Below, in pieces: positions 15,468 through 62,680 of a stretch of 64,000 bases of DNA. The translations under genes were made by a program, and so were the position numbers. This DNA comes from Desulfobacteraceae bacterium (GTDB lineage: Bacteria; Desulfobacterota; Desulfobacteria; Desulfobacterales; ETH-SRB1), in contig JAUVHU010000003.1 of NCBI GenBank assembly GCA_030593145.1, positions 9,962 to 73,961 of the forward strand. The letters are read 5' to 3'. The first letter of the stretch is position 1; each line of letters begins with the position of its first letter. The notes under the pieces are model-generated. The model was not told the origin of the DNA, ran no database searches, and saw only the letters and a program-made list of their open reading frames with translations.

Positions 15468-15611
15468 TGAGACCTTTGCAAAACGCCCCCTTTTGCCCAA
15501 TTTCAGCGTCAGGCTCAGATTTTAATCCTCGAAATATTCAATATATTCCTCCGGTTAAAATCTTCGCCTTCCTTGAACTTGAGCAAAATTGAGCATTTTT
15601 CAAAAGTCTCA
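15468..15611. mobile_element. MITE-like palindromic element, family A
   Basis: TIR tgagacctttgcaaaa / ttttcaaaagtctca; copies at 25081-25246 and 54027-54334; arms at 1-20, 24407-24437, 44935-45000. Confidence 0.8.
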
Positions 15612-15643
15612 ATGTTCAAATAACAAGTCGAATATAATGAACC

Positions 15644-16399
15644 ATGGTTACCATTGAATCAACAGGCATTACTGATATTGGTAAAAGACGGAAGAACAAT
15701 GAAGACTCTATGCTCCTTGATGACGAACAAAGGCTCTATGTTGTTGCCGACGGCATGGGCGGACATCAAGCCGGAGAAGTAGCCAGCAAGCTTGTAGTGG
15801 AAACAATCCGGCACTATATGAAGCAATTCAAGGATGGGGGTAAAACTGAAGAATTAGACGACTCCGACGAAACTCTCTCCAGGGAAGCCAATCGGTTATT
15901 AGCCGGCATCAACATGGCCAACAATGTTGTTTATAATGTCTCCCATATAAAAAACACTTACAGCGGGATGGGCTCCACTGTATCGGCTGTATATTTTACT
16001 AACAAAACTCTTATCTCCGCCAATGTTGGTGACAGCCCGATTTATCTTGTTCGCAACGGAAACATAGAGCTTCTATCCACAACTCACAACCAGTTTTCCG
16101 AGATGGTAGCTCTTGACCCCGCCATGGCGATGCAGATTAGCCCCGAGTTTAAACATATACTCACCAGAGCCATAGGAACAAAAAAAAGCGTAAAAGCTGA
16201 TATCTGCGAAATTCGGTATTTCAAAGAAGATATTCTGGTTATTAGTTCCGATGGATTGAGCAACAAAATCTCTCAGGAAGAAATACTTGACGTTATAAAT
16301 AAAGAGCGACCCGATAAAGCCTGCCGCTCCCTTGTGGATCTGGCCAACAAACGTGGTGGAGATGACAATATTACTGTTATTACTTTAAACCTAAATTGA
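15644..16399 (+). CDS. PP2C-family Ser/Thr protein phosphatase
   Basis: NEDS, VADGMGGH, NVGDS, SDGL, GGDDNIT. Confidence 0.93.
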   Translation: MVTIESTGITDIGKRRKNNEDSMLLDDEQRLYVVADGMGGHQAGEVASKLVVETIRHYMKQFKDGGKTEELDDSDETLSREANRLLAGINMANNVVYNVSHIKNTYSGMGSTVSAVYFTNKTLISANVGDSPIYLVRNGNIELLSTTHNQFSEMVALDPAMAMQISPEFKHILTRAIGTKKSVKADICEIRYFKEDILVISSDGLSNKISQEEILDVINKERPDKACRSLVDLANKRGGDDNITVITLNLN

Positions 16400-16418
16400 G
16401 CTATTTTTTACCAGACCG

Positions 16419-16982
16419 TCAATAGTAAATTCTATCTGTTAATACTTTCCCGTTTTTCGCAAACCTAATCTTTTCAAGTTCAAGCAAAGACCGTTTCATC
16501 TCCGGTCCGCTCATGAATCCACCAGAATGGCCGTCTGACCTGACAACCCGATGGCATGGAATAACTATTGGAAACGAATTATGCGATAACGCTGAACCAA
16601 CCGCCCTCGCGCCGCCGGCAATTCCCAGACTCTCTGCAATCCTTCCATAAGTGCTTATCCACCCGCGGGGAATATCAAAACATGCTGAGAGAACCTTTCT
16701 TTGAAACTCTGAGCACTCTTCAAGGGCAACAGCTTCCAGTTTAAAAATAATCGATTCACCCTCAAGAAATTTATTTATCTGTTCGCCAAGCACTTTAATA
16801 AAAGAACACGATCGAAAACTCACATCAGCGAAATTACTATGGACAAGTTTTTCCAGGGGCTTTCTTTTATCTGATAAAAAAATTCGATAAACTTTTGGCC
16901 CATCTATAGTTTCCTGCCAAACGACAGCAAATAAGCTAAAAGCCGATGGAATCAATATATAATACATTAAGCTACCATACAA
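16419..16982 (-). CDS. ogt: Methylated-DNA-protein-cysteine S-methyltransferase
   Basis: STYGRIA, ARAVGSA, IPCHRV. Confidence 0.9.
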   Translation of the reverse strand: MYGSLMYYILIPSAFSLFAVVWQETIDGPKVYRIFLSDKRKPLEKLVHSNFADVSFRSCSFIKVLGEQINKFLEGESIIFKLEAVALEECSEFQRKVLSACFDIPRGWISTYGRIAESLGIAGGARAVGSALSHNSFPIVIPCHRVVRSDGHSGGFMSGPEMKRSLLELEKIRFAKNGKVLTDRIYY

Positions 16983-17032
16983 AAAAACAGTTCTTCATTT
17001 TAAGTAAGAAAGCCACCGATCTACGCTGATCA

Positions 17033-17209
17033 TCACTGATATAATTCTGTAACCGTCTCCAGAACATCTTCCTTGGACAAAAAACCCAGTTTGACCGCTC
17101 TGCAGACGAGAAAATCGTCTTCCTGTACCCTGCTCAATTCGCGCTCATGCGCAAAACGGGCCAGCTCCTGCAACTTTTTACGAATTGATTTTGCATACTG
17201 AAGCATCAT
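17033..17209 (-). CDS. Small hypothetical protein (58 aa), possibly a gene remnant
   Basis: Hand-translated MMLQYAKSIRKKLQELARFAHERELSRVQEDDFLVCRAVKLGFLSKEDVLETVTELYQ; below the ORF-track cutoff. Confidence 0.4.
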   Translation of the reverse strand: MMLQYAKSIRKKLQELARFAHERELSRVQEDDFLVCRAVKLGFLSKEDVLETVTELYQ

Positions 17210-17284
17210 ATTTTACAATCATTTCAATAGGATCTGCATAAATAGATATCAACTAATGTACTGATCAAGATACCAAGTTCTTTT

Positions 17285-18223
17285 TCATTGTCTCCGCGAT
17301 CTGGGACGAACCGATTTGAAATATTCGACCTGCTTTTTCCAGTTGAAGCCGCAAGCTGTGTGACAATCGAATGGCCCGAACAGGATGTTGTAGTGATAGG
17401 ATTTACCGCATTTAGGGCAGCTCAGGTTAAAGGTCAGCACGCCTTCCTCTTCGGCCTCCCGATATCCTTCTATTCCGACAAACTGTATGCTGGCGTTCTG
17501 GTCACAGCCATCAGGGCAACGAAACATAATATAGTGGTCCGAAGCCATTGCGATATCTGGGAGCCTGTAATCAGCGCATCCGCTTAGGGTATAGGTCATA
17601 ATGTTTGTCCGTGGTTCTCCGGGTTCCTCTATTTCAACGGTCTTTCGCGTCTCTTTTTTATCGTCCTTATAATAGCGAATCCTTATCAGGCGATCGTATT
17701 TTTGGACCATTTTTGCTGTCCCCTTGCCACCACGGACAATCGTATTGCTGATTTGGGCATTGGCGTAAAATGTGTCCGCATCTCTCACCCAATCTAATTC
17801 CTGTTCCCGGAGATTGACGGCCCTTTCAACTTTTTCGGAAGGCCAGCCCAGCCGAGCGGCAATCATTTTGACATGGTGGATTTCAAGGGGATCGGCTTCT
17901 TCAATAATGATTTTGTTGAGTGACTCCCACAGAGCTTCGGCAAGATCCTCAAGAACTACGGTCTCTGCCTTTTTGTCGATTTCCTTGTGGTTAGATTGAT
18001 AAAAATCGTCCCGATCCACGTATTTTGTATCGACAAGCATCTCTTCAACGATTTCGTCGATTGCCTCTTGTCGTCTTTCCCTGTACTTATCTTCCTCTAT
18101 TTTCAAAGGATACAGTATGTTGGCTACTTCACTTGCCCTCTTTGTGGCGGTTTCCCTGTTGGAGAAGATTGCGCCACCCAATCCCCATGGCTGGTCTGAA
18201 ATATTCACAAAAACAGTTGTCAT
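17285..18223 (-). CDS. Hypothetical protein with Cys-rich C-terminal region
   Basis: 312-aa ORF with GGAGG RBS and promoter; CPDGC, CPKC, CHTAC motifs. Confidence 0.75.
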   Translation of the reverse strand: MTTVFVNISDQPWGLGGAIFSNRETATKRASEVANILYPLKIEEDKYRERRQEAIDEIVEEMLVDTKYVDRDDFYQSNHKEIDKKAETVVLEDLAEALWESLNKIIIEEADPLEIHHVKMIAARLGWPSEKVERAVNLREQELDWVRDADTFYANAQISNTIVRGGKGTAKMVQKYDRLIRIRYYKDDKKETRKTVEIEEPGEPRTNIMTYTLSGCADYRLPDIAMASDHYIMFRCPDGCDQNASIQFVGIEGYREAEEEGVLTFNLSCPKCGKSYHYNILFGPFDCHTACGFNWKKQVEYFKSVRPRSRRQ

Positions 18224-18250
18224 CCTTTCATCCTCCCGCGTTTGATATTA

Positions 18251-18321
18251 TTTGCCAAATATAGCAACTTTAATTGTATTGTCAACCAATAAAATAAAAT
18301 AAATTTACCATATATAGCAAA
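18251..18321 (-). promoter_or_regulatory. Sigma70 promoter with two palindromic operator-like boxes
   Basis: TTGACA (18285-18280), 16-bp spacer, TGnTATATT; boxes tttgccaaatatagcaac (18251-18268) and tttaccatatatagcaaa (18304-18321). Confidence 0.55.
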
Positions 18322-18482
18322 TTAATGAAAGTGTCGTGGTGATAAGAAGGGAATGGTCTTCAAAGGTCAAACGAGAAATCGTCAGGAGCAACATAATGAC
18401 ACCCATATGCCTCATCAGCATGGTAAGATGCCAACTAATTTACAAATGGACCGCAAGTCCACCCGCTCAGCAGCTTTTTTAC

Positions 18483-18528
18483 TTGACATCTCAATCTGAT
18501 TAGAATATGTATTTGTACAAGTACATAT
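18483..18528 (+). promoter_or_regulatory. Promoter with a 24-bp palindromic operator upstream of the HTH-MTase module
   Basis: TTGACA 18483-18488; atatgtatttgt|acaagtacatat 18505-18528 (11/12 pairs) over the -10 region. Confidence 0.6.
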
Positions 18529-18574
18529 CGTAGTTACTTTCTTTCCCATTCTCCATCACTTTAAAGGATTTATT

Positions 18575-18829
18575 ATGAACGCAGGAGACATCCTTCAACA
18601 AGCTGATGGTCTTACCCATGACAAGCTCACATACTTTGTCAGAGCTGGTTATCTCAATCCAAAAAAAATCAAAAAAGGTTCTCTAAATTATAACAAATTT
18701 TCAGGAAAAGATTTGTTTCTTGTCAAACGTGCTTGGGAATACATCAAAACATACGACATGAAAACAAAAGCCGCCTTTAAACGGGCTGAAAATGAGTTTA
18801 AAGACCCACAGATGGCTCTATGGAGATAA
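18575..18829 (+). CDS. Small MerR-like winged-HTH protein
   Basis: GLTHDKLTYFVRAGYLNP...YNKFSGKDL matches the MerR HTH pattern. Confidence 0.7.
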   Translation: MNAGDILQQADGLTHDKLTYFVRAGYLNPKKIKKGSLNYNKFSGKDLFLVKRAWEYIKTYDMKTKAAFKRAENEFKDPQMALWR

Positions 18830-18925
18830 TGTCTAATATGCAAACCAGCGGCCTGATGGTTTGTTCAACAGAAATAGAAAGATTACACCAGAGAGCAAAG
18901 CCAAATGCTCTAAATAGAGGCTGGC

Positions 18926-21913: not shown

Positions 21914-21916
21914 TTA

Positions 21917-22633: not shown

Positions 22634-22862
22634 CGGGTAAAACGTGCCGGAAAAAATTCAGACCAATTTCTTCGACTTTTAATACAACATACCTCTGCTC
22701 CGATTTGTGTAATGGAGTCACCCATTAGATGCAACCTGGCAATGTTGCGCAAACTTGCAGGAGGGAATTCTGCTCAGGTAGCCGTTTCGGTAACATCACG
22801 ATAAAATTTGTTAAGAGGCAAATAACTTTGCCCAGCCATAAACATTGTCCATGTTTATTTGG

Positions 22863-23993: not shown

Positions 23994-24141
23994 CTATACT
24001 CAACAGAGTCATAAATGGCGTTTTTGAATTAATCAGAATTGCAAAACAACGAAGTTGTACGAAGGATAGAGTTAAAGAATGGTTTCATCTTCGTGTTTTG
24101 TAATGAAAAAAACACAATAAAGAAACTCCAATTATGACTGT

Positions 24142-24375: not shown

Positions 24376-24434
24376 ATATTTCCCCTAAAAAAAGATACAG
24401 TAAATCGAGCTAATTTCAAAACGTCCCCTTTTGC

Positions 24435-25070: not shown

Positions 25071-25080
25071 CTTATCTTCA

Positions 25081-25246
25081 TGAGCCAATTCCAAAATGTC
25101 CCCTTTTGCCCAATCTCTGCGTCAGGCTCAAATTCCAATCCTCGAAATATTCAATATATTCCTCCGGTTACACGCAGTGAAGCGTCAGCGCTCATTTTTC
25201 GCCTTCCTTGCACTCGAACAAAATTGAACATTTTTCAAAGGTCTCA
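25081..25246. mobile_element. MITE family A copy with an extra hairpin insert
   Basis: Aligns to 15468-15611; extra cacgcagtgaagcgtcagcgctc. Confidence 0.8.
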
Positions 25247-25249
25247 TCC

Positions 25250-26791: not shown

Positions 26792-27043
26792 AGAACTTTG
26801 CTTCCAATCCTTTTATTAATCAGAACTTCACAAACTCATTTTACTACAGAGCAGACAGGCAATTAAATTTGAAAAGGGCTGACTGTTTGAACGCATTAGT
26901 AAGCCTTAAGAAAAAACAGCCGGTAATGAGATATTTCCGGTATGATTTATTAATTTCAACCAACAGAAGCAGTTTTGTCATGTTTTTGTATGCTGTTTTT
27001 TATTTAGGCTAACTTGTCGCGTGAGTTTCAGCCCTTTTCAAAT

Positions 27044-27430
27044 TTAATTGCCTGTCTGCGGAGAAGATGCATTCACCATGCTATTAGTTGTTATCCTTTT
27101 TGCATCAATCCAAAGCCCTTCAAGGTCATAAAAATCACGAACAGATTCATAAAACACATGTATAATAACATGACCATAATCTAACAAAACCCAGTGCCCT
27201 TCCTTTAGCCCCTCTACCATATAAGGTCTTATTCCATGCTCTTTTTTAAGATCAGTCTGAATGTATTCCGCAATTGCGGTAACCTGTCGATTTGAACTGC
27301 CGCTGCAAATGATAAAAAAATCTGCTATTGAGGATAATCCCCGAACATCAAGTATAACAGGATTGATTGCTTTTTTGCCCAAGACTGCTTGAACATATAA
27401 ATCAAGAGATGGATCAAGATCATCGGTCAT
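27044..27430 (-). CDS. rsfS: Ribosome silencing factor
   Basis: ADFFIICSG, WVLLDYGHVIIHVF, FYDLEGLW; follows nadD. Confidence 0.95.
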   Translation of the reverse strand: MTDDLDPSLDLYVQAVLGKKAINPVILDVRGLSSIADFFIICSGSSNRQVTAIAEYIQTDLKKEHGIRPYMVEGLKEGHWVLLDYGHVIIHVFYESVRDFYDLEGLWIDAKRITTNSMVNASSPQTGN

Positions 27431-29363: not shown

Positions 29364-29515
29364 TTTTCCCCCTTGAAATGTTTATTATGTTTTCTTCACC
29401 ACGAAGAACACGAAGAAATTATAAAACCATTAATTTTAAGCTTCGTGTACTTCATGGTTTAATTTTATAATCCTGGTATTAATTTAACCTTTTGAAACAA
29501 ATCGATCTCAAACAA

Positions 29516-29714
29516 GCTTCAGGTATAATTAAATTTTATACTGGAAACTGTCTGAATAGATTATGGATCGTTATGAAAGAACCATAATCTATTTGATTTA
29601 AAGATAAAACATTCCATTAAAACAAAAACCTTTATTATTAGCCCATACAGGTTCTTTCATTACGAGCCGTTATCTACGAGTTTTTTCAGTATAAAATTTA
29701 ATTATACCTGAAGC
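29516..29714. repeat. ~200-bp long inverted repeat
   Basis: gcttcaggtataattaaattttatactg / cagtataaaatttaattatacctgaagc, plus inner arm pair atgaaagaacc / ggttctttcat. Confidence 0.85.
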
Positions 29715-29750
29715 GGCGCTTGCCAAAAACCGAACTTTTCATTCAGGCAT

Positions 29751-29912
29751 TATACCTCGAAAGGCCACAAATTGCGGTTTTTCGCTGGCCATGAACACCA
29801 ATAGCTGCGTTGCTCAGGCTTGCTAATAGCTTGCTATTCCGCACCTTCGCGCCTTGCTCTTGATGCTCATTGCTCACCGAAAAAAACGCAATTTGCAACC
29901 TTCCGAGGTATA
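29751..29912. mobile_element. ERIC-like MITE, family F (TATACC...GGTATA termini)
   Basis: TIR tatacctcgaaagg / ccttccgaggtata; internal gcgttg...cgccttg core. Confidence 0.75.
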
Positions 29913-32365: not shown

Positions 32366-32424
32366 GATAAACTCGTAAAAAATCATGAAGTTAACTATAG
32401 ATGGAACTTTTTACGACGCCATCA
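32366..32424. mobile_element. MITE family B, internally deleted copy overlapping the rplU stop
   Basis: gataaactcgtaaaaaatc...tagatggaactttttacgacgccatca; both ends match 54390-54550. Confidence 0.75.
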
Positions 32425-42273: not shown

Positions 42274-42405
42274 TTGACAAACTCGTAAAAAGTCGAGAAA
42301 TCACTTTTTGCAAAACGTGTTAAGGACTTGATAAAATAGACAATTGCTTCAACCTAACACTTAACGCCTAACACTTGATGAATTCGACTTTTTACGAATT
42401 CATCA
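42274..42405. mobile_element. MITE family B-type element upstream of adk
   Basis: TIR ttgacaaactcgtaaaaagtcga / tcgactttttacgaattcatca. Confidence 0.7.
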
Positions 42406-42428
42406 CATTTGAAAAAAGGAGAATTTTT

Positions 42429-44934: not shown

Positions 44935-45092
44935 GAAACTTTTGCAAAACGCCCCCTTTTGCCTTTACCAGAGTGCTTTAGCGGATCAGACTCAGATTTC
45001 AATCCTCAACATATAGGGTAGCCTGCGGTTTTCGCAAACCCTTATGCATCAAGATCTCAGCACATTTGTTTCCCAAAAACCGCTCAACTTAG
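44935..45092. mobile_element. Chimeric MITE (family A left half plus family C half)
   Basis: Left part matches 15469-15530; right part matches the reverse complement of 62523-62618; joined at aatcctcaacata. Confidence 0.75.
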
Positions 45093-45250
45093 AAGGCAAG
45101 TATAAATAAGTTGTACAGATTGCGCCGTAATTTTGTTTGTTTTCAAGGCGCGTTAAAGCGCGCATAACGAGTTATGTAAGCCTTGACGGAACACAGAAAA
45201 CAAGCAAAAGGACAAGCAAGATGTATAAGTTATTTTTACTTGACGACTTA
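45088..45250. mobile_element. MITE family D, copy 1
   Basis: Near-identical to 57871-58034; TIR caagtataaataagttgtaca / tgtataagttatttttacttg; CTTA at both ends. Confidence 0.88.
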
Positions 45251-45318: not shown

Positions 45319-47061
45319 ATGAAAGAAAATAATGAAAAAATACCAAGTCCTAAAGAACTTGAAAAGGAAATCGGCGAATTTCTGACCAAAAAATTCGGAG
45401 ATAATGTCAAAGTCGTATCTCCAATAGTTATTCCACAAACCGTTGTTTCAGAAAAAGAAGCGCCCCCTTCCCCAAAAAAAGAAAAAAAACTAAGTTTTGA
45501 TTTAAAGCCTGAAGATCTTATCTCCTATCTTGATCAATACATCGTAAAACAGGCTAATGCAAAAGCAATTCTATCCACAAAAATATGCACCCACTTCAAC
45601 CGGATTAAACATGCTGAAGCCTCTCCTGATAAAATCGATGAAATAGTCGGCAGTATCAAGAACAATGTCCTCATGATCGGCCCAACCGGAGTCGGCAAGA
45701 CATATATGATTAAATTGATAGCCAAAAAAATCGGGGTTCCATTCGTTAAGGGCGATGCCACTAAATTCAGCGAAACAGGATATGTCGGAGGAGATGTAGA
45801 GGACCTGGTACGGGACCTGGTCAGGGAGGCTGATGACGATATTGAACTTGCTCAATACGGTATTATATACATTGATGAGCTTGATAAAATTGCATCAAGC
45901 CGCAATCTGATAGGCGCAGATGTATCAAGAACCGGTGTCCAGCGCACTCTACTTAAACCGATGGAAGAAACCGATGTAGATCTGAAAATCCCTCACGACC
46001 CTATTTCAATGCTCCAGGAAATTGAACGATTTCGTAAAACCGGCAAACGGGACAAACAAACCGTAAACACAAAAAACATACTCTTTATTATGAGCGGGGC
46101 ATTTACCGGCCTGGAACAAATTATTAACAAACGAATTTCTAAACAGGAAATAGGTTTTGGCGCGCATATTATAAGTTCCCAGGAACGGATCAACATTCTT
46201 CAACAAGTATTTCCTGAAGATCTGATAACATTCGGATTTGAATCGGAATTTGTGGGCAGACTGCCTGTAAAGGCTGTTTTTGAAATTCTTACTGAAGATG
46301 ACCTTTACGAAATTCTGAAAAATCCCAACAATCCGATCATTCTTGGGAAAAAACTCGATTTCGCGGCATATGGCATAGACATCAAGTTTGATCGTAAAGC
46401 GCTTCGAATTTTAGCAAAACGCGCCTTTAAGGAAACAACAGGCGCAAGAGGTCTGGTCAGCGCATTTGAAACAGCGCTGCTTATATTTGAGAAAAAACTG
46501 CCGTCAACCAACATCAAAAAATTCTCTGTAACGGTTTCTGTTGTCGAAAATCCGGAAAAAACGCTTGAAACTATTTTGTCTTCATCAAACGAAAATGAAT
46601 TAGATGAAATCTTTGACAAGCTATTTTGTGACGAAAAAGAATTTATTGAAAAATATATTGAATTAAACAAGAAAAATTTAAGTGAAAAATATAATCTAAC
46701 CCTGACGCCGGCACGCACAGCCATTGTTGCCGCTTTTTACTGCAAACATATAATGGATATTGGAAAAGTCTTACAAAAAATCAAATCCTATTATGATGAA
46801 ATTAAAAAGATTGAACTATATTTTTTTAAAAATAACGATATCAATATTGTTATGGAAGAAGATGCCGTTGACTTTATTATTGAACAGGTTGTCAATTCAG
46901 GCATTAAACTCGAAGACTTTTATAAACAATTGATAGTCGATTTTGAACTCGGGCTTAAACTCATCCGTGAAAAAACCGGTAAAAACTATTTTAAAATTAC
47001 CAAACAAGCACTGATGGGGCCTGAGTCTTTTATAAGTGATCTTATTAAAGATGAACTTTAA
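45319..47061 (+). CDS. ClpX-like AAA+ ATPase lacking the N-terminal zinc finger, with C-terminal extension
   Basis: GPTGVGKT, ETGYVGGDVE, IYIDELDK, IGF loop, EFVGRLP, TGARGL. Confidence 0.88.
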   Translation: MKENNEKIPSPKELEKEIGEFLTKKFGDNVKVVSPIVIPQTVVSEKEAPPSPKKEKKLSFDLKPEDLISYLDQYIVKQANAKAILSTKICTHFNRIKHAEASPDKIDEIVGSIKNNVLMIGPTGVGKTYMIKLIAKKIGVPFVKGDATKFSETGYVGGDVEDLVRDLVREADDDIELAQYGIIYIDELDKIASSRNLIGADVSRTGVQRTLLKPMEETDVDLKIPHDPISMLQEIERFRKTGKRDKQTVNTKNILFIMSGAFTGLEQIINKRISKQEIGFGAHIISSQERINILQQVFPEDLITFGFESEFVGRLPVKAVFEILTEDDLYEILKNPNNPIILGKKLDFAAYGIDIKFDRKALRILAKRAFKETTGARGLVSAFETALLIFEKKLPSTNIKKFSVTVSVVENPEKTLETILSSSNENELDEIFDKLFCDEKEFIEKYIELNKKNLSEKYNLTLTPARTAIVAAFYCKHIMDIGKVLQKIKSYYDEIKKIELYFFKNNDINIVMEEDAVDFIIEQVVNSGIKLEDFYKQLIVDFELGLKLIREKTGKNYFKITKQALMGPESFISDLIKDEL

Positions 47062-47067
47062 AACTGC

Positions 47068-47200
47068 ATGGCGTCGTAAAAAGTCCCATCTACCGCGTTG
47101 CAGTGATTTTTCAGACTCTCAACATACTATATGTATGCCTTCGATCCTGAAAAATCACTACGCCTTGTATATGAAACTTTTTACTTAGCCATCTATAGTT
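47068..47200. mobile_element. MITE family B
   Basis: TIR atggcgtcgtaaaaagt / actttttacttagccat; inverse copy within 54390-54550. Confidence 0.82.
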
Positions 47201-47347
47201 AGATTCGTAAAAAGAGCAACAAGCACTAAAACACGAAATAATTACATGTTTTTCGTGTTTTTGTGATAAATATTTTAATTCTGGCCCGTCCGCCTCATGC
47301 CGCTTGGCAGAAGGACGAGCTTGACCAGGAAAGGTAAAGGATTCACA

Positions 47348-48526: not shown

Positions 48527-48533
48527 ACAAAAG

Positions 48534-48749
48534 AAGCCCGGCCCAAAGGACCAGACTTTGGTTTGCCACTGAAAGAAGCTGTTTTGCTTAAAGCTGTACA
48601 AGTTAAAAGTGCCTAAAGTTGTGGAGTCGCTTCGCTCCGCCGATTTTATATAATTGACAGAATCCCTTAACTTTAGTTCACTTCAAACTCTTACAGCGTT
48701 TCTTCAGGCAGAGCCGAAAAACTCTGACCTGGCCCTGAGAACCAGGTTT
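48534..48749. mobile_element. Palindromic mini-element with a nested gtcgcttcgctc cassette
   Basis: Imperfect TIR aagcccggcccaaaggaccag / ctggccctgagaaccaggttt; inner cassette resembles 56270-56310. Confidence 0.6.
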
Positions 48750-48776
48750 TTCAAGGTAAAATAAAAGGAACAAGTT

Positions 48777-49754
48777 ATGTTATTTCCAGACTATAGACCA
48801 AGGCGTCTGCGTCAAAATGAGGCTTTTCGCCGCATGATACGTGAAACGGAAATTTCCGTAAATGATCTGATTCTGCCGCTTTTTGCGATTAACGGCAAAG
48901 GGATTAAAAAACCAATACCATCCATGCCGGGGCAGTATCAGTTATCAATAGACAATTTGGTTAAAACAGCCAAAAAGGCTTTTGATCTTGGCATCCCGGC
49001 TATTATGCTTTTCGGAATACCGAACAAAAAAGATCCCCTTGCGACAAGCGCTTACGCAAAAAATGGTATTGCACAAAAAGCAACAAGCGCTCTGAAAAAT
49101 AAAATTCCTGATCTTGTCGTAATAACCGACGTCTGCTTGTGCCACTATACGGACCACGGCCACTGCGGCATTGTAAAAAATAATATAATAGACAATGATG
49201 CGTCGCTCGATCTTATAGCCCTCACAGCACTTTCTCACGCAAAAGCAGGCGCTGACATGGTAGCTCCTTCTGACATGATGGACGGCCGCGTTGCTGAAAT
49301 TCGCAATATACTCGATGAAAACAGTTTTACAAATATTCCTATCATGGCATATTCAGCAAAGTATTGTTCTGCTTATTATGGGCCGTTCCGCCAGGCAGCC
49401 AGCTCAGCTCCAAAATTCGGTGACCGCAGAACATATCAGATGGACCCCGCAAACGCTGTCGAAGCAATCAGGGAAGTTACAATGGATATTGAAGAAGGAG
49501 CGGATATTATAATGATAAAACCCGCCCTGCCCTATCTCGATATTATCTGCCGCATCCGCGACGAAATTGATCTTCCTGTCGCCGCATATAATGTCAGCGG
49601 CGAATACGCGATGATTAAGGCTGCCGACAAAATGGGATGGCTTGACGGCAAAAGAGTCATGATGGAAACCCTTACCGCAATCAAGCGGGCAGGCGCAGAC
49701 ATGATTTTGACCTATTTTGCCATTGAAGCCGCAAAAGAGCTGATTAAAAAATGA
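48777..49754 (+). CDS. hemB: Porphobilinogen synthase
   Basis: DVCLCHYTDHGHCG, APSDMMDGR, YGPFR, YQMDP, YNVSGEY. Confidence 0.98.
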   Translation: MLFPDYRPRRLRQNEAFRRMIRETEISVNDLILPLFAINGKGIKKPIPSMPGQYQLSIDNLVKTAKKAFDLGIPAIMLFGIPNKKDPLATSAYAKNGIAQKATSALKNKIPDLVVITDVCLCHYTDHGHCGIVKNNIIDNDASLDLIALTALSHAKAGADMVAPSDMMDGRVAEIRNILDENSFTNIPIMAYSAKYCSAYYGPFRQAASSAPKFGDRRTYQMDPANAVEAIREVTMDIEEGADIIMIKPALPYLDIICRIRDEIDLPVAAYNVSGEYAMIKAADKMGWLDGKRVMMETLTAIKRAGADMILTYFAIEAAKELIKK

Positions 49755-49977
49755 ACATCGAACATCGAACGTCCAACATCGAATGGGAAAAGATGAACTT
49801 CTGAAAAGAAACAGAAATAGTCATTCAAGATTCTGTATTGGTTTTTTATTCAATTTTAAAATAATTTGAAGAGCGGAGCGACATCATTATTCGACGTTCG
49901 ACGTTCAATGTTCGATGTTGGACGTTCATCTTTAAAAACAACCCCTTATGGCATAAATACAACCTGTAAACAGTTAC
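49752..49977. repeat. Heptamer-array mini-element starting in the hemB stop codon
   Basis: aacatcg aacatcg aacgtcc aacatcg ... tcgacgt tcgacgt tcaatgt tcgatgt tggacgt; terminal gtaaacagttac. Confidence 0.8.
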
Positions 49978-51152: not shown

Positions 51153-51178
51153 GCTCATCTACTCAACTGTAATATTTT

Positions 51179-52081: not shown

Positions 52082-52092
52082 ACAGGTTAACC

Positions 52093-53925: not shown

Positions 53926-54026
53926 TAACAAAATACCCCCTAAGCCAATTTTAATACCGCAATCAATAGAAGATTGCATAAACTATTTTTATTATCAAAC
54001 AACTTATTAGAAAACAACTATTATTT

Positions 54027-54334
54027 TGAGGTGGTTTCAAAATGTTCAATTTTCTTCAAGATCAAGGGCAATTCCGCAGGATAGCGGAATTGGACAACTG
54101 CCAAGTTGCCCGAAGGGTAAGGGGCATGGATGCCCCGAGTCAACGCTCAAACATAGCGCTGACGCTTCACTTCGTGCAACCATAGGAATACATTGAGTAT
54201 TTCGAGAATAGCGCTAAAGGTTAGCGCTGACGGTTGCGCCTTACGGCTTGAAAAAATGCACTTCGTGTCACTCCGTGCAAAATTTGAGCCTGACGCAGAC
54301 ATTGGGCAAAAGGAAACGTTTTGAAATTGGCTCA
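54027..54334. mobile_element. MITE family A (reverse orientation) expanded to 308 bp by nested hairpins
   Basis: Ends match family A; inserts caattccgc..gcggaattg, gcccgaagggt, ggggcatggatgcccc, tagcgctaa..ttagcgct, cacttcgtg. Confidence 0.78.
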
Positions 54335-54389
54335 ACCAACTTGCTGTTGACATGTCTTTATTATTATAATTAAATTAATTAGTTTAATC

Positions 54390-54550
54390 GATGATTTCGT
54401 AAAAAGTCACGAATTTAACTATAGATGGGTAAGTAATCCCGCCAAGGCGGGACATATACAAAGCATAGTGATTTTTCAGGATCGAAAGCATACATATAAA
54501 TCTGAAAAATCATTGCAACGCAGTAGATGGAACTTTTTACGACGCCATCA
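54390..54550. mobile_element. MITE family B with an inserted hairpin
   Basis: gatgatttcgtaaaaagt / actttttacgacgccatca; insert tcccgccaaggcggga. Confidence 0.8.
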
Positions 54551-54568
54551 TTATTGGGAGAGTTCACA

Positions 54569-56100: not shown

Positions 56101-56111
56101 ACAAAAGAACT

Positions 56112-56430
56112 ATCACGAAAGCACGAAAAATTGAAACCACGAAAACAGTTGGCAATTTAATAGTATAGGAATTTCCATTTTATGCTTAATGAATTCGGCA
56201 TGATAGGATATGAGTGATTTTTTTGAACGTCGAACATCGAACGTCCAACGTCGAACATCGAATGATGAAATCGCTTCGCTCTGCCTGTTTATAAATTGGC
56301 AGAATACCTTATTCAAAATTCGATGTTCGACGTTCGATGTTGGACGTTCATCTTTTAAGCCCGCCCGAAGGGTACTAATTTAATTTCCGGGCATTATTTC
56401 GTGTTTTCGTACTTTCGTGTTTTCGTGATT
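56112..56430. mobile_element. Nested mini-elements: (CACGAAA)n/(TTTCGTG)n outer arms around a heptamer-array element
   Basis: atcacgaaagcacgaaaa...tttcgtgttttcgtgat; inner aacgtcg aacatcg aacgtcc ... tcgatgt tggacgt at 56224-56352. Confidence 0.78.
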
Positions 56431-56465
56431 AATTTATTTTGCTTTAAAACTTTTAGTGATAATTT

Positions 56466-57794: not shown

Positions 57795-57870
57795 TTGATG
57801 AATTCGTAAAAAAACTATATTATGCCGCTTCGCAACACTGCAAACGAAAATAACTTTTGCGTTTTTTTCC

Positions 57871-58034
57871 CTTAGGAGGCAAGTATAAATAAGTTGTACA
57901 GATTGCGCCGTAATTTTGTTTGTTTTCAAGGCGCGTTAAGGCGCGCATAACGAGTTATGTGAGCCTTGACGGAACACAGAAAACAAGCAAAAGGACAAGC
58001 AGGATGTATAAGTTATTTTTACTTGACGACTTAG
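57871..58034. mobile_element. MITE family D, copy 2
   Basis: Near-identical to 45088-45250; CTTAG at both ends. Confidence 0.88.
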
Positions 58035-58119
58035 GTTTATGAAATAAGCTGAAGGCATTAAACTTCGGCCTGTTTGAAGAACATGCCCTGCATCTCAAAT
58101 CATAATTGTAACTATTCAG

Positions 58120-59052
58120 GTGGATAAAATGACTCAGGAAACTTACGATGTTGTTATTTTAGGAACCGGGCCTGGAGGACTTCAGGCCGCGATTCATGCT
58201 GCCCGCGCTAAAGCCTCTGTACTGGTTTTGGGTAGGGAGCATAAATCCAGTCTTTACAGGGCACATGTAGAAAATTACTGCTGTCTAAGTAAAATTTCTG
58301 GAGAGGAGCTTCTTGAACAAGGCGTCCAGCAAGCCATGAATTCCGGAGCACATTTTATCCAGGAAGATATTATCAAGACTACACAGAAGGATGACTGGTT
58401 CATAATTTCAACTGAAAGCGGGCGTTTAATAAAACATAGAGCCCTTATTATGGCTATGGGTATAACCCGCAACCGTCTTGGAGTTCCAGGAGAGAAAAAG
58501 TTTCTGGGAAAAGGCGTCAGTTATTGTGTGGATTGTGATGCCAATTTTTATAAGAATGCAAAAGTAGCTATTGTTGGCAATGAATCGGCAGCTGTTTCAG
58601 GCGCGTTAACCCTTCTTTTTTATGCTGATCAAGTTCATCTTGTTTCAGATCAGCTTAAGGTTTCCGAACGACTCGATTATCAAATCAGGGAATCAGAAGT
58701 TATTATCCACTCGGGGCGCAGGGTTAAAGAAATCGTTGGGAAAGAAATTGTTGAAGGAATAATATTGGACGACGACCAGAGGCTGAACATAGATGGCGTA
58801 TTCATAGAGACCGGGGCAAAAGGGGCCGTTGAACTAGCTGCTACCCTCGGTGTTGAGCTGGATGCCGACAAATTCAAATACATTGTTGCTGATAAGCAGC
58901 AGCAGACAAACATACAGGGAATTTATGCTGCCGGAGATATCTGCGGCCCGCCTTTTCAGATGGCTAAAGCTGTCGGGGAAGGCTGCGTTGCAGGGCTTTC
59001 TGCGGCCAGGTATGCAAAGAAATTTGATAGCCGTTCACGGCTTGAAATTTGA
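58120..59052 (+). CDS. Thioredoxin reductase-like flavoprotein
   Basis: GTGPGG FAD motif, GVSYCVDCD, IYAAGD; NADPH motifs degenerate; alternative ATG at 58129. Confidence 0.85.
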   Translation: MDKMTQETYDVVILGTGPGGLQAAIHAARAKASVLVLGREHKSSLYRAHVENYCCLSKISGEELLEQGVQQAMNSGAHFIQEDIIKTTQKDDWFIISTESGRLIKHRALIMAMGITRNRLGVPGEKKFLGKGVSYCVDCDANFYKNAKVAIVGNESAAVSGALTLLFYADQVHLVSDQLKVSERLDYQIRESEVIIHSGRRVKEIVGKEIVEGIILDDDQRLNIDGVFIETGAKGAVELAATLGVELDADKFKYIVADKQQQTNIQGIYAAGDICGPPFQMAKAVGEGCVAGLSAARYAKKFDSRSRLEI

Positions 59053-59099
59053 GCAGTTACAAAAATTTTTACCAACAAACTAATAGGGAGGTAATTATT

Positions 59100-59753
59100 A
59101 TGTCAGACAACCCAAGAGGCGCGATTTTACAACGCGATAAAGAAACATACGCAATAGTTCCAAGAACTCCGGTCGGGCTTGTTACTCCTGAAGATTTGGA
59201 AAATATCGCTAATGTCGCAAGAAAATACGAAATACCAATAATTAAAATTACTTCCGGTCAGCGTTTTGCCCTGGTGGGAATAAAGAAAGATGATGTTGAT
59301 AATGTCTGGAAAGACCTGAATATGGATGTGGGTAAAGCCAGCGAGCTTTGCCTGCATTATGTTCAAGCGTGTCCGGGAACAGCTGTGTGCAAATTTGGAG
59401 CCCAAGACTCTTTGGGGCTCGGCATGGAAATTGAAAAACTTTTTTCAGGAATCGATCTTCCCGCCAAAGTCAAAATTGGAGTATCAGGCTGTCACTTCAC
59501 ATGCGGAGAGAGCTTTGTCCGTGACATCGGTATTCTTGGTTTGAAAAAAGGCTGGACATTAATAGTGGGAGGAAATTCCGGACATCGCGCACGTATCGGA
59601 GACATTCTATCTGAAAACCTGTCAAAAGACGAAACAATTGATCTGACTAAAAAGGTATTAGAATATTATAAAAACAACGCTAAAAAACGGGAACGGATGG
59701 CCAGATTTGTCAATAGAATCGGATTTGAAGCTATTAAAGAAGCTATACTTTAA
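59100..59753 (+). CDS. sir: Low-molecular-weight assimilatory-type sulfite reductase (siroheme-[4Fe-4S])
   Basis: GAILQRDK, KITSGQR, ACPGTAVC, SGCHFTCGE; resembles the Desulfovibrio monomeric enzyme as I recall it; ATG 59100 with GGAGG RBS. Confidence 0.85.
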   Translation: MSDNPRGAILQRDKETYAIVPRTPVGLVTPEDLENIANVARKYEIPIIKITSGQRFALVGIKKDDVDNVWKDLNMDVGKASELCLHYVQACPGTAVCKFGAQDSLGLGMEIEKLFSGIDLPAKVKIGVSGCHFTCGESFVRDIGILGLKKGWTLIVGGNSGHRARIGDILSENLSKDETIDLTKKVLEYYKNNAKKRERMARFVNRIGFEAIKEAIL

Positions 59754-60399
59754 CTAGACTGCTCACAGTGTGTTCAACAAGGCTGTTGTCCACGAAAATC
59801 TTAATTTTTGAATTGTCGTCACCAAGTCTTAAAAAAAAGGATTCTGTTCTTTTTGTAGATATCGGTTTGGCCGCCCATGCAGCAAGGCCGCGAAGAATTG
59901 AATCAGAAGATTCCATATATGGGCAAAGCAAATCAGCATTCTTTTTTACAAGATGAGGCCTGGAATGAGCAAGTCTTCCAATGCCCCATAAAACACCCCT
60001 TTGCAGAGCTTCATGCTCAATATAGTTTCCCTCAGGATTTATGTAAGACAGCAGTATATGGGCATACTCTTGCGCAAGCCTGTTATTACGGGCCATGATT
60101 TCGCCCATTGCTTCAGGTGATCCCCAGCCTATTCCGCCGGATTCATCATTGAGATTCCACATTAAACGGCGCATTATCACGCGCGCAGATTCCATATCAT
60201 GTTCGGCAAGATTTGAAACAACTGCGCCCATAGCGGTAACAGCCCGCCATTTTATAATTTCATCACTGCTATAAAAAAAGGAAAAAAGAGGGTTTACCAC
60301 CTGCCTGGCCGGTAGTTGACAGATCTCCTTAAGCCCCTTTTCAAAATTTTTACATCTTAGAAGTTTAAGTACTTTCTTTTTAAGCTGTCGCCACCCCAT
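59743..60399 (-). CDS. HEAT-repeat protein, DVU0298-like family
   Basis: RVIMRRLMWNLNDESGGIGWGSPE. Confidence 0.8.
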   Translation of the reverse strand: MGWRQLKKKVLKLLRCKNFEKGLKEICQLPARQVVNPLFSFFYSSDEIIKWRAVTAMGAVVSNLAEHDMESARVIMRRLMWNLNDESGGIGWGSPEAMGEIMARNNRLAQEYAHILLSYINPEGNYIEHEALQRGVLWGIGRLAHSRPHLVKKNADLLCPYMESSDSILRGLAAWAAKPISTKRTESFFLRLGDDNSKIKIFVDNSLVEHTVSSLVKV

Positions 60400-60402
60400 T
60401 AT

Positions 60403-60588
60403 TTATTCCCAGAATATACAATCCTCAGGACAGTATTTTATGGCCTCTTCAACACAAGATTCAGGATAATCTGAAAGCTCGGCAACTTTTATATAACCTG
60501 CATCATTCAAACTGAAAACCAGAGGACAGACTTCGACACATCCTTCGCATAGACTACATTGACCAATATCAACAACAGGTATTTTCAT
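60403..60588 (-). CDS. Monocluster ferredoxin
   Basis: CSLCEGCVEVCP...CPEDCI. Confidence 0.9.
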   Translation of the reverse strand: MKIPVVDIGQCSLCEGCVEVCPLVFSLNDAGYIKVAELSDYPESCVEEAIKYCPEDCIFWE

Positions 60589-60624
60589 AACAAGCTCTCA
60601 GACAAACCACCAACCAGGGAGATT

Positions 60625-60999
60625 TTATCCCTTCCACAGTCCATGGATATTGCAGTATGCCCGGACTAAAATCTCGTCGGCTTCCACGCTAAAGAATGCT
60701 TCGGGCGCCTGCCCAGGATTAAGGAACTGCCTGTATGCTTTGCCGTCGGCAATAATTTCGATCCATTCGATAAAATGTTTTTCTTCCATTGGATGCGCTA
60801 CATCACCAACCTTGACTTTTACGCCCCAGGGGATTTTGTCAGATACAGGGACATGTTTCTCTTTTGTCGCGTCAACGGTATTTTCTTTAATAAGACTCAT
60901 CGGTTTGCCACAGCATACAAGCTCACCTTTTCCACCGTGGAGTACTTCGACGATGTTTCCGCAGACCTCACATTTATAAATTTCAAGTTTTTCTGCCAT
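60625..60999 (-). CDS. dfx: Desulfoferrodoxin (class I superoxide reductase)
   Basis: CEVCGN...[27 protein letters not shown]. Confidence 0.95.
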
Positions 61000-61022
61000 G
61001 ATGACCTCCATTCGGGAAAATC

Positions 61023-61595
61023 CTAATAATTTTCTCCCAGCAGCTCAAAATAATCTCTAGGATGGTCGCAGGCCGGACAAACATTCGGTGCCTCTGTACC
61101 TTCGTGAAGATAGCCGCAGTTGCGGCAACGCCATACAACCTTTTCATCTCTTTTAAAGACCCTGCCGGCTTCAATATTCGCTGCAAGATCATTATATCTT
61201 TTTTCATGCTGTTTTTCTGCAACAGCAATTGCCTCAAATATTTTAGCAATGTCATCAAAGCCTTCTTCGCGGGCTGTTTTTGCAAAATCAGGATACATTG
61301 TAGTGTGCTCATAATTTTCGCCACTCGCGGATGCTTTAAGGTTTTCAAGGGTAGTGGCGATTACACCGGCAGGAAATGCCCCTGTGATCTCAACCTCTCC
61401 ACCTTCAAGAAGTTTAAAAAGTCTTTTGGCATGTTCCTTCTCCTGATTTGCAGTCTCTTCAAAAATCGCAGATATCTGGACGTAACCCTCCTTTTTTGCC
61501 TTGCTTGCAAAATATGTATAGCGATTGCGAGCCTGCGATTCTCCCGCAAAAGCTGTAAGAATATTTATTTCTGTTCTGGTTCCTTTCAGCTTCAT
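61023..61595 (-). CDS. rbr: Rubrerythrin
   Basis: [30 protein letters not shown]...CPAC. Confidence 0.97.
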
Positions 61596-61635
61596 AAATA
61601 TATCCCTCCCTTTTTATAGTTTACTTTTTTAACTT

Positions 61636-61796
61636 GGAGCCTGTCCGAGAATTGTGTTCGTAACGAAAAAGTGTGAAAGCGAGACCAAATTTTCGCAAAT
61701 TTGAGGAGAATAGCAGGTCTATTTGACGAAAATTTGCGGGAATTTAGGCCGTTTCTCATGCTTTTGCAGTAGGACCAGAATTCTCGGACAGGCTCC
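61636..61796. mobile_element. MITE family E with perfect 18-bp TIR
   Basis: ggagcctgtccgagaatt / aattctcggacaggctcc. Confidence 0.85.
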
Positions 61797-61814
61797 TGGT
61801 ATTTTACCAAGATC

Positions 61815-62504
61815 TCAACCAGCTAGCCTTTCCTTTACAATCTCAATATAGATCGAATCAGTATAATCGGAAATAATCTTCTTAAAAGCCGTTAGGCTTT
61901 TTTCGTTCTCACCCATTACCGCATAAATTCGACCCAAATTGAAAAAAGCCTCATCTTTCATAATGGAATCAGATCCTGAAGCAATCATTTCAAAATACTT
62001 TACAGCTGAATTGTAATCTTTATTCCCTTCATGAGAATAACCAAGGCTGCTCAGAATAATATTTTTATATGAGCAATTATTCTTAAAGTCATGAAGCGCT
62101 TTATTATATAAGGCAATAGCTCTGTCAAACTCACCTGAATTATAACAGATATTAGCATAAACAATTTTTGCGAGTTTTCCGGCATCCTTTTTTGAATATT
62201 TATCCAGAATTGTCTGAAAATCCTTTTCTACTGCAAGATAAGCTTTGTCCTGCCCGTCATTTTTCATAATAATTGTATATTTTTGCATTCCCTGTTCCAG
62301 CATGTCAAAAGCCCTGGTTTCAGCCTTATTTGAAAAATAACTAAAGCCTGAAACAGCAATTATAAGTACAATTAATGCGCTCAGCCCGTATGATAGCTGG
62401 GTTTTATGTTTAATAAACAGCGCAAGCAGCCTGGATGTGAGTGTTAAAAACTCATCAGGTTTATTAAGAAGTTCTTTTCGCGTAATCTTTTTTTTCTTTG
62501 CCAT
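61815..62504 (-). CDS. Membrane-anchored TPR protein (YfgM-like)
   Basis: RKELLNKPDEF N-terminus, single TM, TPR helices. Confidence 0.8.
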   Translation of the reverse strand: MAKKKKITRKELLNKPDEFLTLTSRLLALFIKHKTQLSYGLSALIVLIIAVSGFSYFSNKAETRAFDMLEQGMQKYTIIMKNDGQDKAYLAVEKDFQTILDKYSKKDAGKLAKIVYANICYNSGEFDRAIALYNKALHDFKNNCSYKNIILSSLGYSHEGNKDYNSAVKYFEMIASGSDSIMKDEAFFNLGRIYAVMGENEKSLTAFKKIISDYTDSIYIEIVKERLAG

Positions 62505-62521
62505 TATTTTGTTCCTTATTG

Positions 62522-62680
62522 CCTAAGTTAAGCGATTTTTTGCGAAGATATGTGCTGAGATCTTGATGCATAAGGATTTGCAAAAACCGCAGGCATACCC
62601 GTGGATATGTCGAGGATTTTTGCGAAGCCTTTATGCGCAAGAGATCGGCGCAGATCGAGTAAAAAACCGCTCAATTTAGG
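62522..62680. mobile_element. MITE family C
   Basis: TIR cctaagttaagcg / cgctcaatttagg; half copy at 45001-45092. Confidence 0.8.

Follow-up and report, generated by a model that had tools for sequence, protein, structure and literature searches.

The window, i.e., the whole stretch of 64,000 nucleotides analysed here, comes from the genome of a seep sulfate reducer in which a DsrK gene is present. Foldback elements of six families (A–F) and their remnants lie in it as listed below, where R1 denotes a covariance model that draws on 37 modules taken from six other genomes (the window genome was not used), and R2 one that draws on ERIC. The E-values of both models are roughly calibrated.

15464-15468 and 15611-15615: flanks of family A copy 1, a 5-bp duplication
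15469..15610, minus strand: family A copy 1, a GAGAC...GTCTC foldback of 142 nt (R1 97.1 bits on the minus strand, 21.4 on the plus strand)
15528 and 25141, minus strand: family A core strings
25082..25245, minus strand: family A copy 2, in which a mini-insert of 22 nt is nested to the left of the core (R1 32.2 bits)
29751..29912, minus strand: family F, the most ERIC-like copy, with TATACC...GGTATA ends (R1 34.4, R2 23.7 bits)
29820, minus strand: family F core string
32375..32424, plus strand: outer frame of family B without interior, with a single TAGATGG (filled copies have TAGATGG on both sides), as judged by comparison with the family B alignment
45001-45087: truncated, inverted C-like half element, abutted by family D copy 1
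45092..45248, plus strand: family D copy 1, both flanks TA (R1 29.8 bits)
45159 and 57942, plus strand: family D core strings
47068..47208, minus strand: family B copy inside a CGTAAAAAGTC...GACTTTTTACG outer frame (R1 61.4, R2 18.6 bits)
47118, minus strand: family B core string
54028..54335, plus strand: family A copy enlarged by several small inserts nested within it, assigned from fold and sequence (R1 partial match at 54174-54214, 21.1 bits)
54390..54556, plus strand: family B copy whose apical hairpin lacks its 3' half, and which bears a small GC hairpin as an insert
57875..58031, plus strand: family D copy 2, both flanks TA (R1 33.2, R2 16.2 bits)
61636..61798, plus strand: family E copy (R1 19.6 bits, E ~0.006, the weakest match among the six families)
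61705, plus strand: family E core string
62522..62686, plus strand: family C copy (R1 40.6 bits)
62590, plus strand: family C core string

The original prediction, that six MITE (miniature inverted-repeat transposable element) families share one ERIC-like core, is confirmed; all six core strings quoted in it are found at the claimed positions and strands, and the elements are foldbacks of the claimed size (measured 121–178 nt). The interpretation attached to it is partly supported. Families A–E are multi-copy in the 2.48-Mb assembly, where nhmmer searches with family profiles gave 91 loci (53 long) for A, 40 (33 long) for B, 58 (27 long) for C, 23 (21 long) for D, and 16 (7 long) for E. Family F is represented in this genome by one full copy and fragments. 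Two further core-bearing families are located elsewhere in the genome, G with 4–5 copies and H with at least nine, and eight core-bearing families (A–H) are thus co-resident. Many contigs of the assembly terminate within these repeats. A strict core pattern has 65 matches in the genome compared with one for the reversed pattern used as control, and each of the 65 belongs to a locus of family A, B or C and is oriented as in that family. With a looser regular expression, 138 matches were obtained, including 31 singletons that are mostly chance matches in coding DNA.

The unit common to all families extends beyond the 22-nt tip, and constitutes an inner hairpin module of 80–100 nt. From left to right, the module has a CAAGGCG-type anchor and a compensated stem that varies in sequence. 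An internal loop rich in G and A leads on to the apical stem, where one G.T pair is invariant, and a free loop and the CAACGC-type right anchor follow. Each family has its own variant of the core. The seeds for R1 were chosen by core pattern, which makes core invariance a matter of construction and leaves the stems and anchors as independent evidence. R1, derived from foreign genomes, matches all six window families with 19.6–97.1 bits, on the strand named in the original prediction, while the best unrelated match in the window scores 13.6 bits; family E is the weakest and a borderline match. In the whole genome, R1 has at least 108 matches (150 of 730 candidates scored). Compensatory changes are seen in 24 of the 32 base pairs of the module, and 93.5% of the alignment cells are paired, as opposed to 73.9% after shuffling. 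For covariation, the module scores 0.512 and the shuffles 0.158, none of the 500 shuffles reaches the value of the module, and partners that are only slid give 0.047–0.118. The likeness across families is real homology, and the predicted conserved structured module is upheld by the covariation as well as by the cross-family matches.

The fold belongs to one particular strand. For families A, B, C, D, E and G, the top strand is the more stable of the two in all but one of 145 copies (144), with counts of 53/53 in A, 33/33 in B, 26/27 in C, 21/21 in D, 7/7 in E and 4/4 in G, and the same holds for all 12 ERIC copies of Escherichia coli K-12 and all 42 copies in a Terriglobia chromosome. In the stems, G.T outnumbers A.C by 119 to 20. 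Together with the compensatory changes, these data show that selection keeps the module through the fold of this strand, and support selection as a single strand of fixed polarity. No Rfam family covers an element, whether judged by gathering score or by E≤1, and this applies to the window as well as to five foreign loci; the only match at gathering score is a tRNA. Annotation pipelines consequently miss these repeats. A weak AsrC match at foreign locus L009 adjoins an element and does not lie on it.

Terminal inverted repeats (TIRs) are conserved in the family alignments of A, C, D, E, G and H, and the ends of family B are nested in a frame element. The target-site duplications measure 5 bp in A, 3 bp in C, 2 bp in D, 3 bp in G, and 6 bp in H. 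In family A, the duplication is exact in 13 of 22 cases and within one mismatch in 18 of 22 (mispaired control 0.00 and 0.03); in C it is present in 11 of 16 (control 0.13), and in H, within one mismatch, in four of five (control 0.15). TA flanks occur in 5/6 D copies and TTA/TAA flanks in 3/4 G copies, and the TA of D and the TTA of G may represent a target preference instead of a duplication. When the ends of families A–F are compared by BLAST, no match between families is obtained at E≤0.001. The claim that the core is housed between different kinds of ends is supported by duplication lengths that differ by family. The wording of unrelated termini has to be corrected in one point: D and G share an end pattern, and G ends recur in a Terriglobia genome.

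Elements A1, A2, C and F are absent from the orthologous sites of congener G001. The A2 site is cleanly empty there, with the two flanking genes abutting, and the A1 site is also empty; F is missing from its orthologous site while a 98% identical copy is found elsewhere in G001, and C is missing from a site where the flanks are not cleanly alignable. G001, in turn, carries an A copy missing from this genome. A search by end pairs did not yield a parent insertion sequence (IS) with the same ends in this genome or in genome G026. In simple searches of these incomplete assemblies, no end pairs 0.4–5 kb apart in this genome enclose a transposase, only a CooC-like ATPase gene being found between two C copies, and none of 47 end matches in G026 are paired 0.5–3 kb apart. 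For families A, D and H, the two ends are too dissimilar for such an end-pair search. IS-family names for the ends, such as IS630-like (TA) and IS5-like (3 bp), were considered and are not claimed.

All 25 genomes searched within the host's own family carry the core, which is multi-copy across Desulfobacterota. In a sample of the phylum, 102 of 401 genomes have a core match, about 32 of them with at least six, whereas the reversed-pattern control gives 0–2 matches in 461 other genomes. Further carriers include named Desulfobacterales, Desulfosarcina variabilis (20 core copies), and Olavius symbionts. The proposed search of other phyla retrieved the core from the Terriglobia chromosome, with 42 copies. 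A literature search found no description of the element in sulfate reducers, which is no proof of absence.

The likeness to ERIC was evaluated with models in both directions, and is sustained. In the K-12 chromosome, R1 has a single match at E≤1, and that match is an ERIC copy. Of the 12 K-12 ERIC copies, four score above noise with R1 (38.3, 27.4, 19.8, and 16.9 bits; noise 11.3) and eight do not. The top four window matches for R2 are F, B, D2 and A1, all of them weak (23.7–15.6 bits, with noise from 14.1). Sequence identity of the families to ERIC is below BLAST detection. The ERIC features named in the original prediction agree with real K-12 copies, which have an AAGGCGG-type left anchor and TATAC termini, and in some copies a CCAACGC right anchor. 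Judged from models that match both ways, the module is evidently homologous to the center of enterobacterial ERIC, and common descent of the two is very probable.

ERIC/IRU (RU-1) and the families described here are imperfect palindromes of about 130 nt located between genes, with matching inner architecture and anchor motifs and the same polarity of the better-folding strand. The TATACC...GGTATA ends of family F resemble those of K-12 ERIC copies, and the TA flanks of family D are like those reported for ERIC (PMC2759123, PMC3184786). In other respects the systems differ. According to the reviews drawn on here, ERIC/IRU is confined to Enterobacteriaceae and Vibrionaceae; the hosts here are Desulfobacterota and at least one Terriglobia chromosome, compared with Enterobacteriaceae/Vibrio for ERIC. 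Eight families are co-resident here, and in most of them the ends and the duplications (5, 3, and 6 bp) are not those of ERIC, as seen for A, C, G and H. We know of no transposase for ERIC, nor for the present families.

With TIRs and a duplication length specific to each family, and insertions that differ between two species of one genus, families A–H are non-autonomous foldback transposons (MITEs) with different ends, among which one ERIC-type core has probably been re-housed repeatedly. Such elements would be moved by transposases supplied in trans. Because duplication length is set by the transposase, at least four different enzymes would be involved, a deduction made solely from the duplication lengths. 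A likely route for re-housing the core several times between different transposon ends would be that one MITE nests in another and the inner ends are then lost, and the nested and truncated elements at 54028-54335 and 45001-45092 may represent intermediates of this kind. In common with bacterial MITEs such as Correia/NEMIS, RUP, Nezha and Chunjie, the present families have TIRs and target duplications, can form hairpins, are numerous, contain no gene, and are polymorphic for insertion when close relatives are compared. In a usual MITE family the ends are common with one IS and the interior is family-specific, whereas here the interior is shared and best conserved, and the ends differ. Chunjie of Geobacter (178–235 bp, 21-bp TIR, 9-bp repeats; PMC3184786), fits none of the present families.

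A different entry mode, in which a very small mobile insert, consisting of the core alone or of the entire inner module, targets palindrome tips or bare TIR pairs and so arrives inside unrelated MITEs, is suggested by the family B locus. It would resemble the small dispersed repeats reported in Nostoc MITEs. At the B site (47068..47208), the outer frame is also present in G001 but encloses another interior, environmental contigs join 47066 to 47319 without B, and the single TAGATGG of the empty frame contrasts with two around the 100-nt interior of filled copies. In addition, C copies in two subfamilies are missing exactly the 40-nt core segment, further small inserts are nested in A copies to the left or right of the core, and a bare TIR–TIR palindrome exists in G026. 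However, none of the 65 strict cores is found outside family elements, and the family-specific core variants look like co-divergence; the earlier suggestion that the core moves independently of the ends is not supported. Short direct repeats border the C forms that have no core, and one of these repeats belongs to the conserved core flank, so that deletion explains the forms; at least two independent deletions are needed for them in any case. The supposed inserts are also unequal, 100 nt in B and 40 nt in C. An insert of this type is therefore distinctly unlikely.

Divergence of one old MITE family, with a single enzyme, drifting ends, a retained center and no exchange of ends, would account for the end pattern common to D and G, for the G-type ends that accompany the core across phyla, and for the many families in relatives that begin TAG...CTA. 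It is nevertheless quite improbable, since a single enzyme would not be expected to leave duplications of 5, 3, 2 and 6 bp within the same genome, and since A–F lack cross-family matches at precisely the ends, which in transposons are usually the most constrained part.

As in REP/REPIN, the present elements are high-copy intergenic hairpins with a strand-specific fold in a genome with Y1-type genes, which would conform with movement as single strands by a hairpin-recognising Y1 (RAYT-type) transposase. Such a mechanism would also agree with the failure to find a parent IS, with the Y1_Tnp-like genes that this genome shares with 59 of 61 relatives, and with the position of the foldable strand on the C-rich strand, as defined by GC skew in this genome, 77 times against 37. 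Nonetheless, it is highly improbable. HUH-type transposition does not produce target-site duplications or TIRs, both of which are clear here, unlike in REP/REPIN; Y1 genes do not track the element and occur also in relatives without it, and the two Y1-like genes of this genome are not flanked by elements, whereas a REP/REPIN system has a linked, single-copy RAYT gene with repeats on its flanks. Nor was a conserved GTAG/CGTC tag noted at the module ends. The orientation bias is inseparable from gene direction, and is not reproduced in the Terriglobia chromosome (15 versus 14, where skew is weak); the 12 K-12 ERIC copies split 5 to 7, as reckoned from coordinates. The Y1/RAYT association as such is uninformative, the gene family being near-universal in the relatives, carriers or not.

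An origin as relics of palindrome-bounded cassettes with a gene for a four-helix-bundle "23S rRNA IVS protein" is brought to mind by 11 PF05635 matches in the genome and by word-armed hairpins in the window (9239-9332, 11596-11710, 49746-49976, and 56160-56359), but is extremely improbable: none of eight PF05635 loci examined has an A–G match within 600 nt, and their arms are arrays of 7–8-nt words with no ERIC-like core. Chance or convergence of AT-rich foldback tips has a negligible probability, even if the bare tip motif is low in information and the loose expression yields its singletons, given the 65 pattern matches against one in the control (0–2 in other genomes), model matches that span 80–100 nt and include the non-complementary anchors, and a covariation score above that of every shuffle.

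The chances are nearly even that the fold acts as RNA when transcription passes through an element, where it would determine processing or stability, a function reported for ERIC in Yersinia. With respect to flanking genes there is no sense bias (28 sense versus 40 antisense), and orientation thus lends a sense-RNA role no support. A scan for promoters and terminators found nothing element-specific, and T-run terminators are absent from the elements. Among the assembled contigs of a public RNA library, short high-depth contigs cover the repeats and none covers flanking genes, a picture that multi-copy repeat DNA could also give. An action as single-stranded DNA in transposition or replication is a more tentative possibility, and a role other than these two is unlikely.

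Two other systems offer partial parallels to a shared interior. Small dispersed repeats (SDR) nested in Nostoc MITEs were reportedly described by Elhai et al. in 2008, as a short conserved hairpin in several MITE families of one genome, and small nested inserts are found here as well. Compared with that description, the present unit differs in its length of 80–100 nt, its covarying stems and its lack of solo copies. The CORE-SINEs and V-SINEs of vertebrates are non-autonomous elements that combine one strongly conserved central domain with differing heads and tails and different partners. Being eukaryotic retrotransposons, in contrast to the bacterial DNA foldbacks here, they are an analogy and not relatives. 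It is conceivable, if rather doubtful, that the ERIC-type core is a functional single-stranded module of pan-bacterial range, as a structured RNA or ssDNA signal read by a conserved factor of the host or the element, and that it hitch-hikes by re-housing itself among unrelated transposon ends. MITEs of many transposase classes and phyla would then be vehicles for one core, as a bacterial counterpart of the CORE-SINE puzzle, and the 35-year-old "function unknown" of ERIC would be one instance.

ERIC repeats have been used for bacterial typing since 1991, and to our knowledge no origin, mover or function has been established for them. Sulfate reducers and at least one Acidobacteriota chromosome contain this core in hundreds of copies. 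Compensatory change maintains it on one strand, and it rides ends with different insertion chemistries. In practical terms, the repeats break short-read assemblies. ERIC then no longer stands as an oddity of enterobacteria, and the question becomes that of a module which is widely shared and under selection inside otherwise unrelated selfish elements, for which E. coli ERIC and the cultured D. variabilis offer test systems.

The window is housekeeping DNA from a sulfate reducer that has not been cultured; NCBIfam and Pfam assignments include DsrK, ribosomal protein S1 and a ClpX-like ATPase. It lies in an assembly of 2.48 Mb in 111 contigs. Repeats with at least four other copies make up about 4% of this genome (101 kb in 775 stretches), and many contig ends fall inside them. 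The six core strings quoted in the original prediction, one for each of the MITE families A–F, are all present in the window at the positions and on the strands reported, and each forms the tip of an intergenic foldback of 121–178 nt. A strict core pattern gives 65 matches in the genome versus 1 for a backwards control, while a looser regular expression adds 31 singletons that are mostly chance matches in coding DNA. Every one of the 65 strict matches belongs to an element of family A, B or C and is oriented as in that family, and there are no solo cores, so that the proposed independent movement of the core is not borne out.

The original observation is right, and it is understated. Among the aligned copies, the shared part exceeds the hairpin tip and follows a single common plan: a CAAGGCG-type left anchor, a stem of family-specific sequence with the pairing kept, an internal loop rich in G and A, an apical stem containing a G.T pair, a free loop, and a CAACGC-type right anchor without complementarity to the left anchor. 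In relatives, the core lies in contexts of the same plan, with different stems and hypervariable loops. The fold was evaluated in a MAFFT alignment of 37 modules taken exclusively from six other genomes. Of the 32 pairs that RNAalifold predicts for it, 24 show compensatory double changes, and 93.5% of cells are paired, versus 73.9% in shuffles. Covariation scores 0.512, compared with 0.158 in shuffled alignments; the real value is reached by 0 of 500 shuffles and falls to 0.047–0.118 when the partners are slid by 1–3 columns. Because the alignment seeds were picked by the core pattern, independent evidence comes from the stems and anchors only.

A covariance model, R1, was built from this foreign alignment and the window was scanned with it without filters. 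It was predicted that such a model would find matches across the families, and R1 recovers all six on the strand originally reported, with E as the weakest; the best unrelated match in the window scores 13.6 bits. Across the genome, 150 of 730 candidates were scored with R1, and at least 108 matches have E ≤ 0.01. Two further core-bearing families, G and H, were found. Rfam has no model for the element.

Core-bearing families: loci in the source genome (BLAST and family profiles for A–F), R1 scores of window copies on the reported strand, and target duplications with mispaired controls.
Family A: 91 loci, 53 long; 97.1 bits (copy A1; 21.4 bits on its reverse strand) and 32.2 bits (copy A2); 5-bp duplication of any sequence, 13/22 exact and 18/22 within one mismatch (controls 0.00 and 0.03).
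Family B: 40 loci, 33 long; 61.4 bits.
Family C: 58 loci, 27 long; 40.6 bits; A/T-rich 3-bp duplication, 11/16 (control 0.13).
Family D: 23 loci, 21 long; 29.8 bits (copy D1) and 33.2 bits (copy D2); TA duplication, 5/6.
Family E: 16 loci, 7 long; 19.6 bits.
Family F: a single full copy, plus fragments; 34.4 bits.
Family G: 4–5 copies; TTA/TAA duplication, 3/4.
Family H: at least 9 copies (G000:C20:76453-76554 and eight other loci), one of them just past the window end; 143 nt with GTGTCC...GGACAC ends; 6-bp duplication, 4/5 within one mismatch (control 0.15).

The duplications were derived by comparison of flanks, family by family. The length of a target duplication is fixed by the transposase, and since the lengths are family-specific, several enzymes must act; the families are transposons of more than one kind. 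No autonomous parent element was found in the source genome or in the relative G026. The end type of family H also occurs in G036, a genome from another family of the order.

In the congener G001, where shared genes are 74–94% identical to those of the source genome, the orthologous sites are without A1, A2, C and F, and an A copy that is missing from the source genome is present about 100 nt away. The B, C and F copies (window 62522-62686, 47068-47208 and 29751-29912) are 96–99% identical between the two genomes. That the elements are more alike than the genes points to a recent expansion, to exchange, or to strong constraint on the whole element. At the B site, the same outer frame encloses different interiors in the two congeners, and environmental contigs include the B locus minus B. 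The frame hairpin, CGTAAAAAGTC...GACTTTTTACG, is seen in three states, i.e., empty, with an interior of TAACAC words, or with the B module, at the following sites:
Window 32375-32424, frame hairpin.
Window 42282-42412, frame hairpin.
Window 47068-47208, frame hairpin.
G001:C40:758381-758447, frame hairpin in the congener.

Other accounts of origin and movement fare less well. A Y1 transposase as mover is not supported: Y1 genes do not follow the distribution of the element. An origin from four-helix-bundle cassettes applies to the word-armed hairpins described below and not to these families. Core-less C copies could be taken as evidence of core insertion; short direct repeats flank the gap in them, and deletions fit better.

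Several additional repeats and genes were noted. Hairpins with arms made of arrays of 7–8-nt words, for example of the TGAACAT/CGAACGT type, are a repeat class distinct from the ERIC-like families, and arrays of this kind also flank PF05635 (four-helix-bundle) genes at other places in the genome (G000 loci L013–L019). Long palindromic repeats of 223–253 nt, with 11–23 other copies, lack an ERIC-like core. The window positions are:
9239-9332, 11596-11710, 49746-49976 and 56160-56359, word-armed hairpins.
26811-27063 and 48530-48765, palindromic repeats.
29495-29717, palindromic repeat adjoining F, with another copy elsewhere in G001.
54028-54335, family A copy that several small nested inserts have enlarged to 308 nt.
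For one nested 22-nt insert the genome has 24 occurrences (≤3 mismatches); A loci contain 17 of these, on either side of the core. Another insert, of 13–18 nt, has 12 occurrences, 11 of them in family A. A CooC/MinD-like ATPase gene (G000:C31:26316-27301) lies between inverted forms of family C, one a 58-nt mini form and one full, and could represent a chance pair or a composite. Two Y1_Tnp-like matches (G000:C96:7734-8069 and G000:C43:23685-24014) have ORFs of about 323–335 aa, and long forms of this kind recur in most relatives.

Of 145 long copies from six families, 144 fold better on the reported strand than on the complement, and the same-strand advantage is found in 12/12 ERIC copies and 42/42 copies from Terriglobia. 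Stem pairs in the foreign alignment comprise 119 G.T versus 20 A.C; equal numbers are expected if constraint acts on the duplex only, which argues that it is in single-stranded nucleic acid, either RNA or DNA, that the fold is important. Relative to flanking co-directional genes, 28 copies are sense and 40 antisense. The foldable strand coincides with the C-rich strand, based on local GC skew, in 77 cases versus 37, but gene direction matches skew in 100 of 114, making the two effects inseparable. No such bias was seen in the Terriglobia chromosome, which has weak skew. We infer that the bias, if real, reflects selection against the stronger hairpin in mRNA or in the template for lagging-strand synthesis. 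In a library recorded as RNA, short high-depth contigs cover repeats (window 44962-45223 and 47058-47188) with the flanking single-copy genes uncovered, a pattern equally compatible with carry-over of multi-copy DNA, and contigs alone cannot tell the two apart.

Within the same family, all 25 genomes have the core pattern (6–259 matches per genome, controls 0–1), and it is patchy in other families of the order (up to 135 matches). A phylum sample of 401 genomes includes 102 with at least one match; in about 32 of them the count is six or higher, with a maximum of 288 (controls 0–2). When one genome per species was scanned, at least 119 loci were returned, mostly from Desulfobacterales and allies among the matches listed, with Olavius symbionts and the cultured Desulfosarcina variabilis, which has 20 copies, as carriers; other matches come under the labels Terriglobia, Gemmatimonadota, Phycisphaeraceae and Pseudomonadota. 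The record for Terriglobia consists of one 6.4-Mb chromosome in which 42 copies are dispersed, so the presence of the core there is no binning error. These copies have G-type ends and A-type core flanks, and are missing the CAAGGCG/CAACGC anchors; this combination of parts differs from all those found in the source genome.

In the passages cited, ERIC is described as enterobacterial, with a Vibrio variant; according to reviews it has TA flanks and no known transposase, and in Yersinia an RNase E-linked effect on mRNA is described (PMC3184786, PMC10969869, PMC2759123). Literature searches did not find a description of this core-bearing element in sulfate reducers. The ERIC-like character proposed for the core is upheld by R1, which contains no enterobacterial sequence: in the 4.64-Mb Escherichia coli K-12 chromosome its sole match at E ≤ 1 is an ERIC copy. 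Of 12 K-12 copies located with the ERIC2 primer string, whose wording matches the text of 161 papers (≤3 mismatches allowed in the genome), four score 38.3, 27.4, 19.8 and 16.9 bits, with 11.3 bits as the top non-ERIC score in the same 36 kb; the other eight, mostly a variant without the CCAACGC anchor, are at noise level. Reciprocally, R2, a model of the 12 ERIC copies, places F (23.7 bits), B (18.6), D2 (16.2) and A1 (15.6) as the top four in the window, which is weak support since noise begins at 14.1 bits, though in the right direction. The left arms of ERIC and the window families are similar by eye, and family F has ends of the TATAC type, as in ERIC. Families A–H are MITEs of the ERIC type, in hosts outside the range described for it, with a common, strand-specifically folded core between ends of different insertion chemistry.
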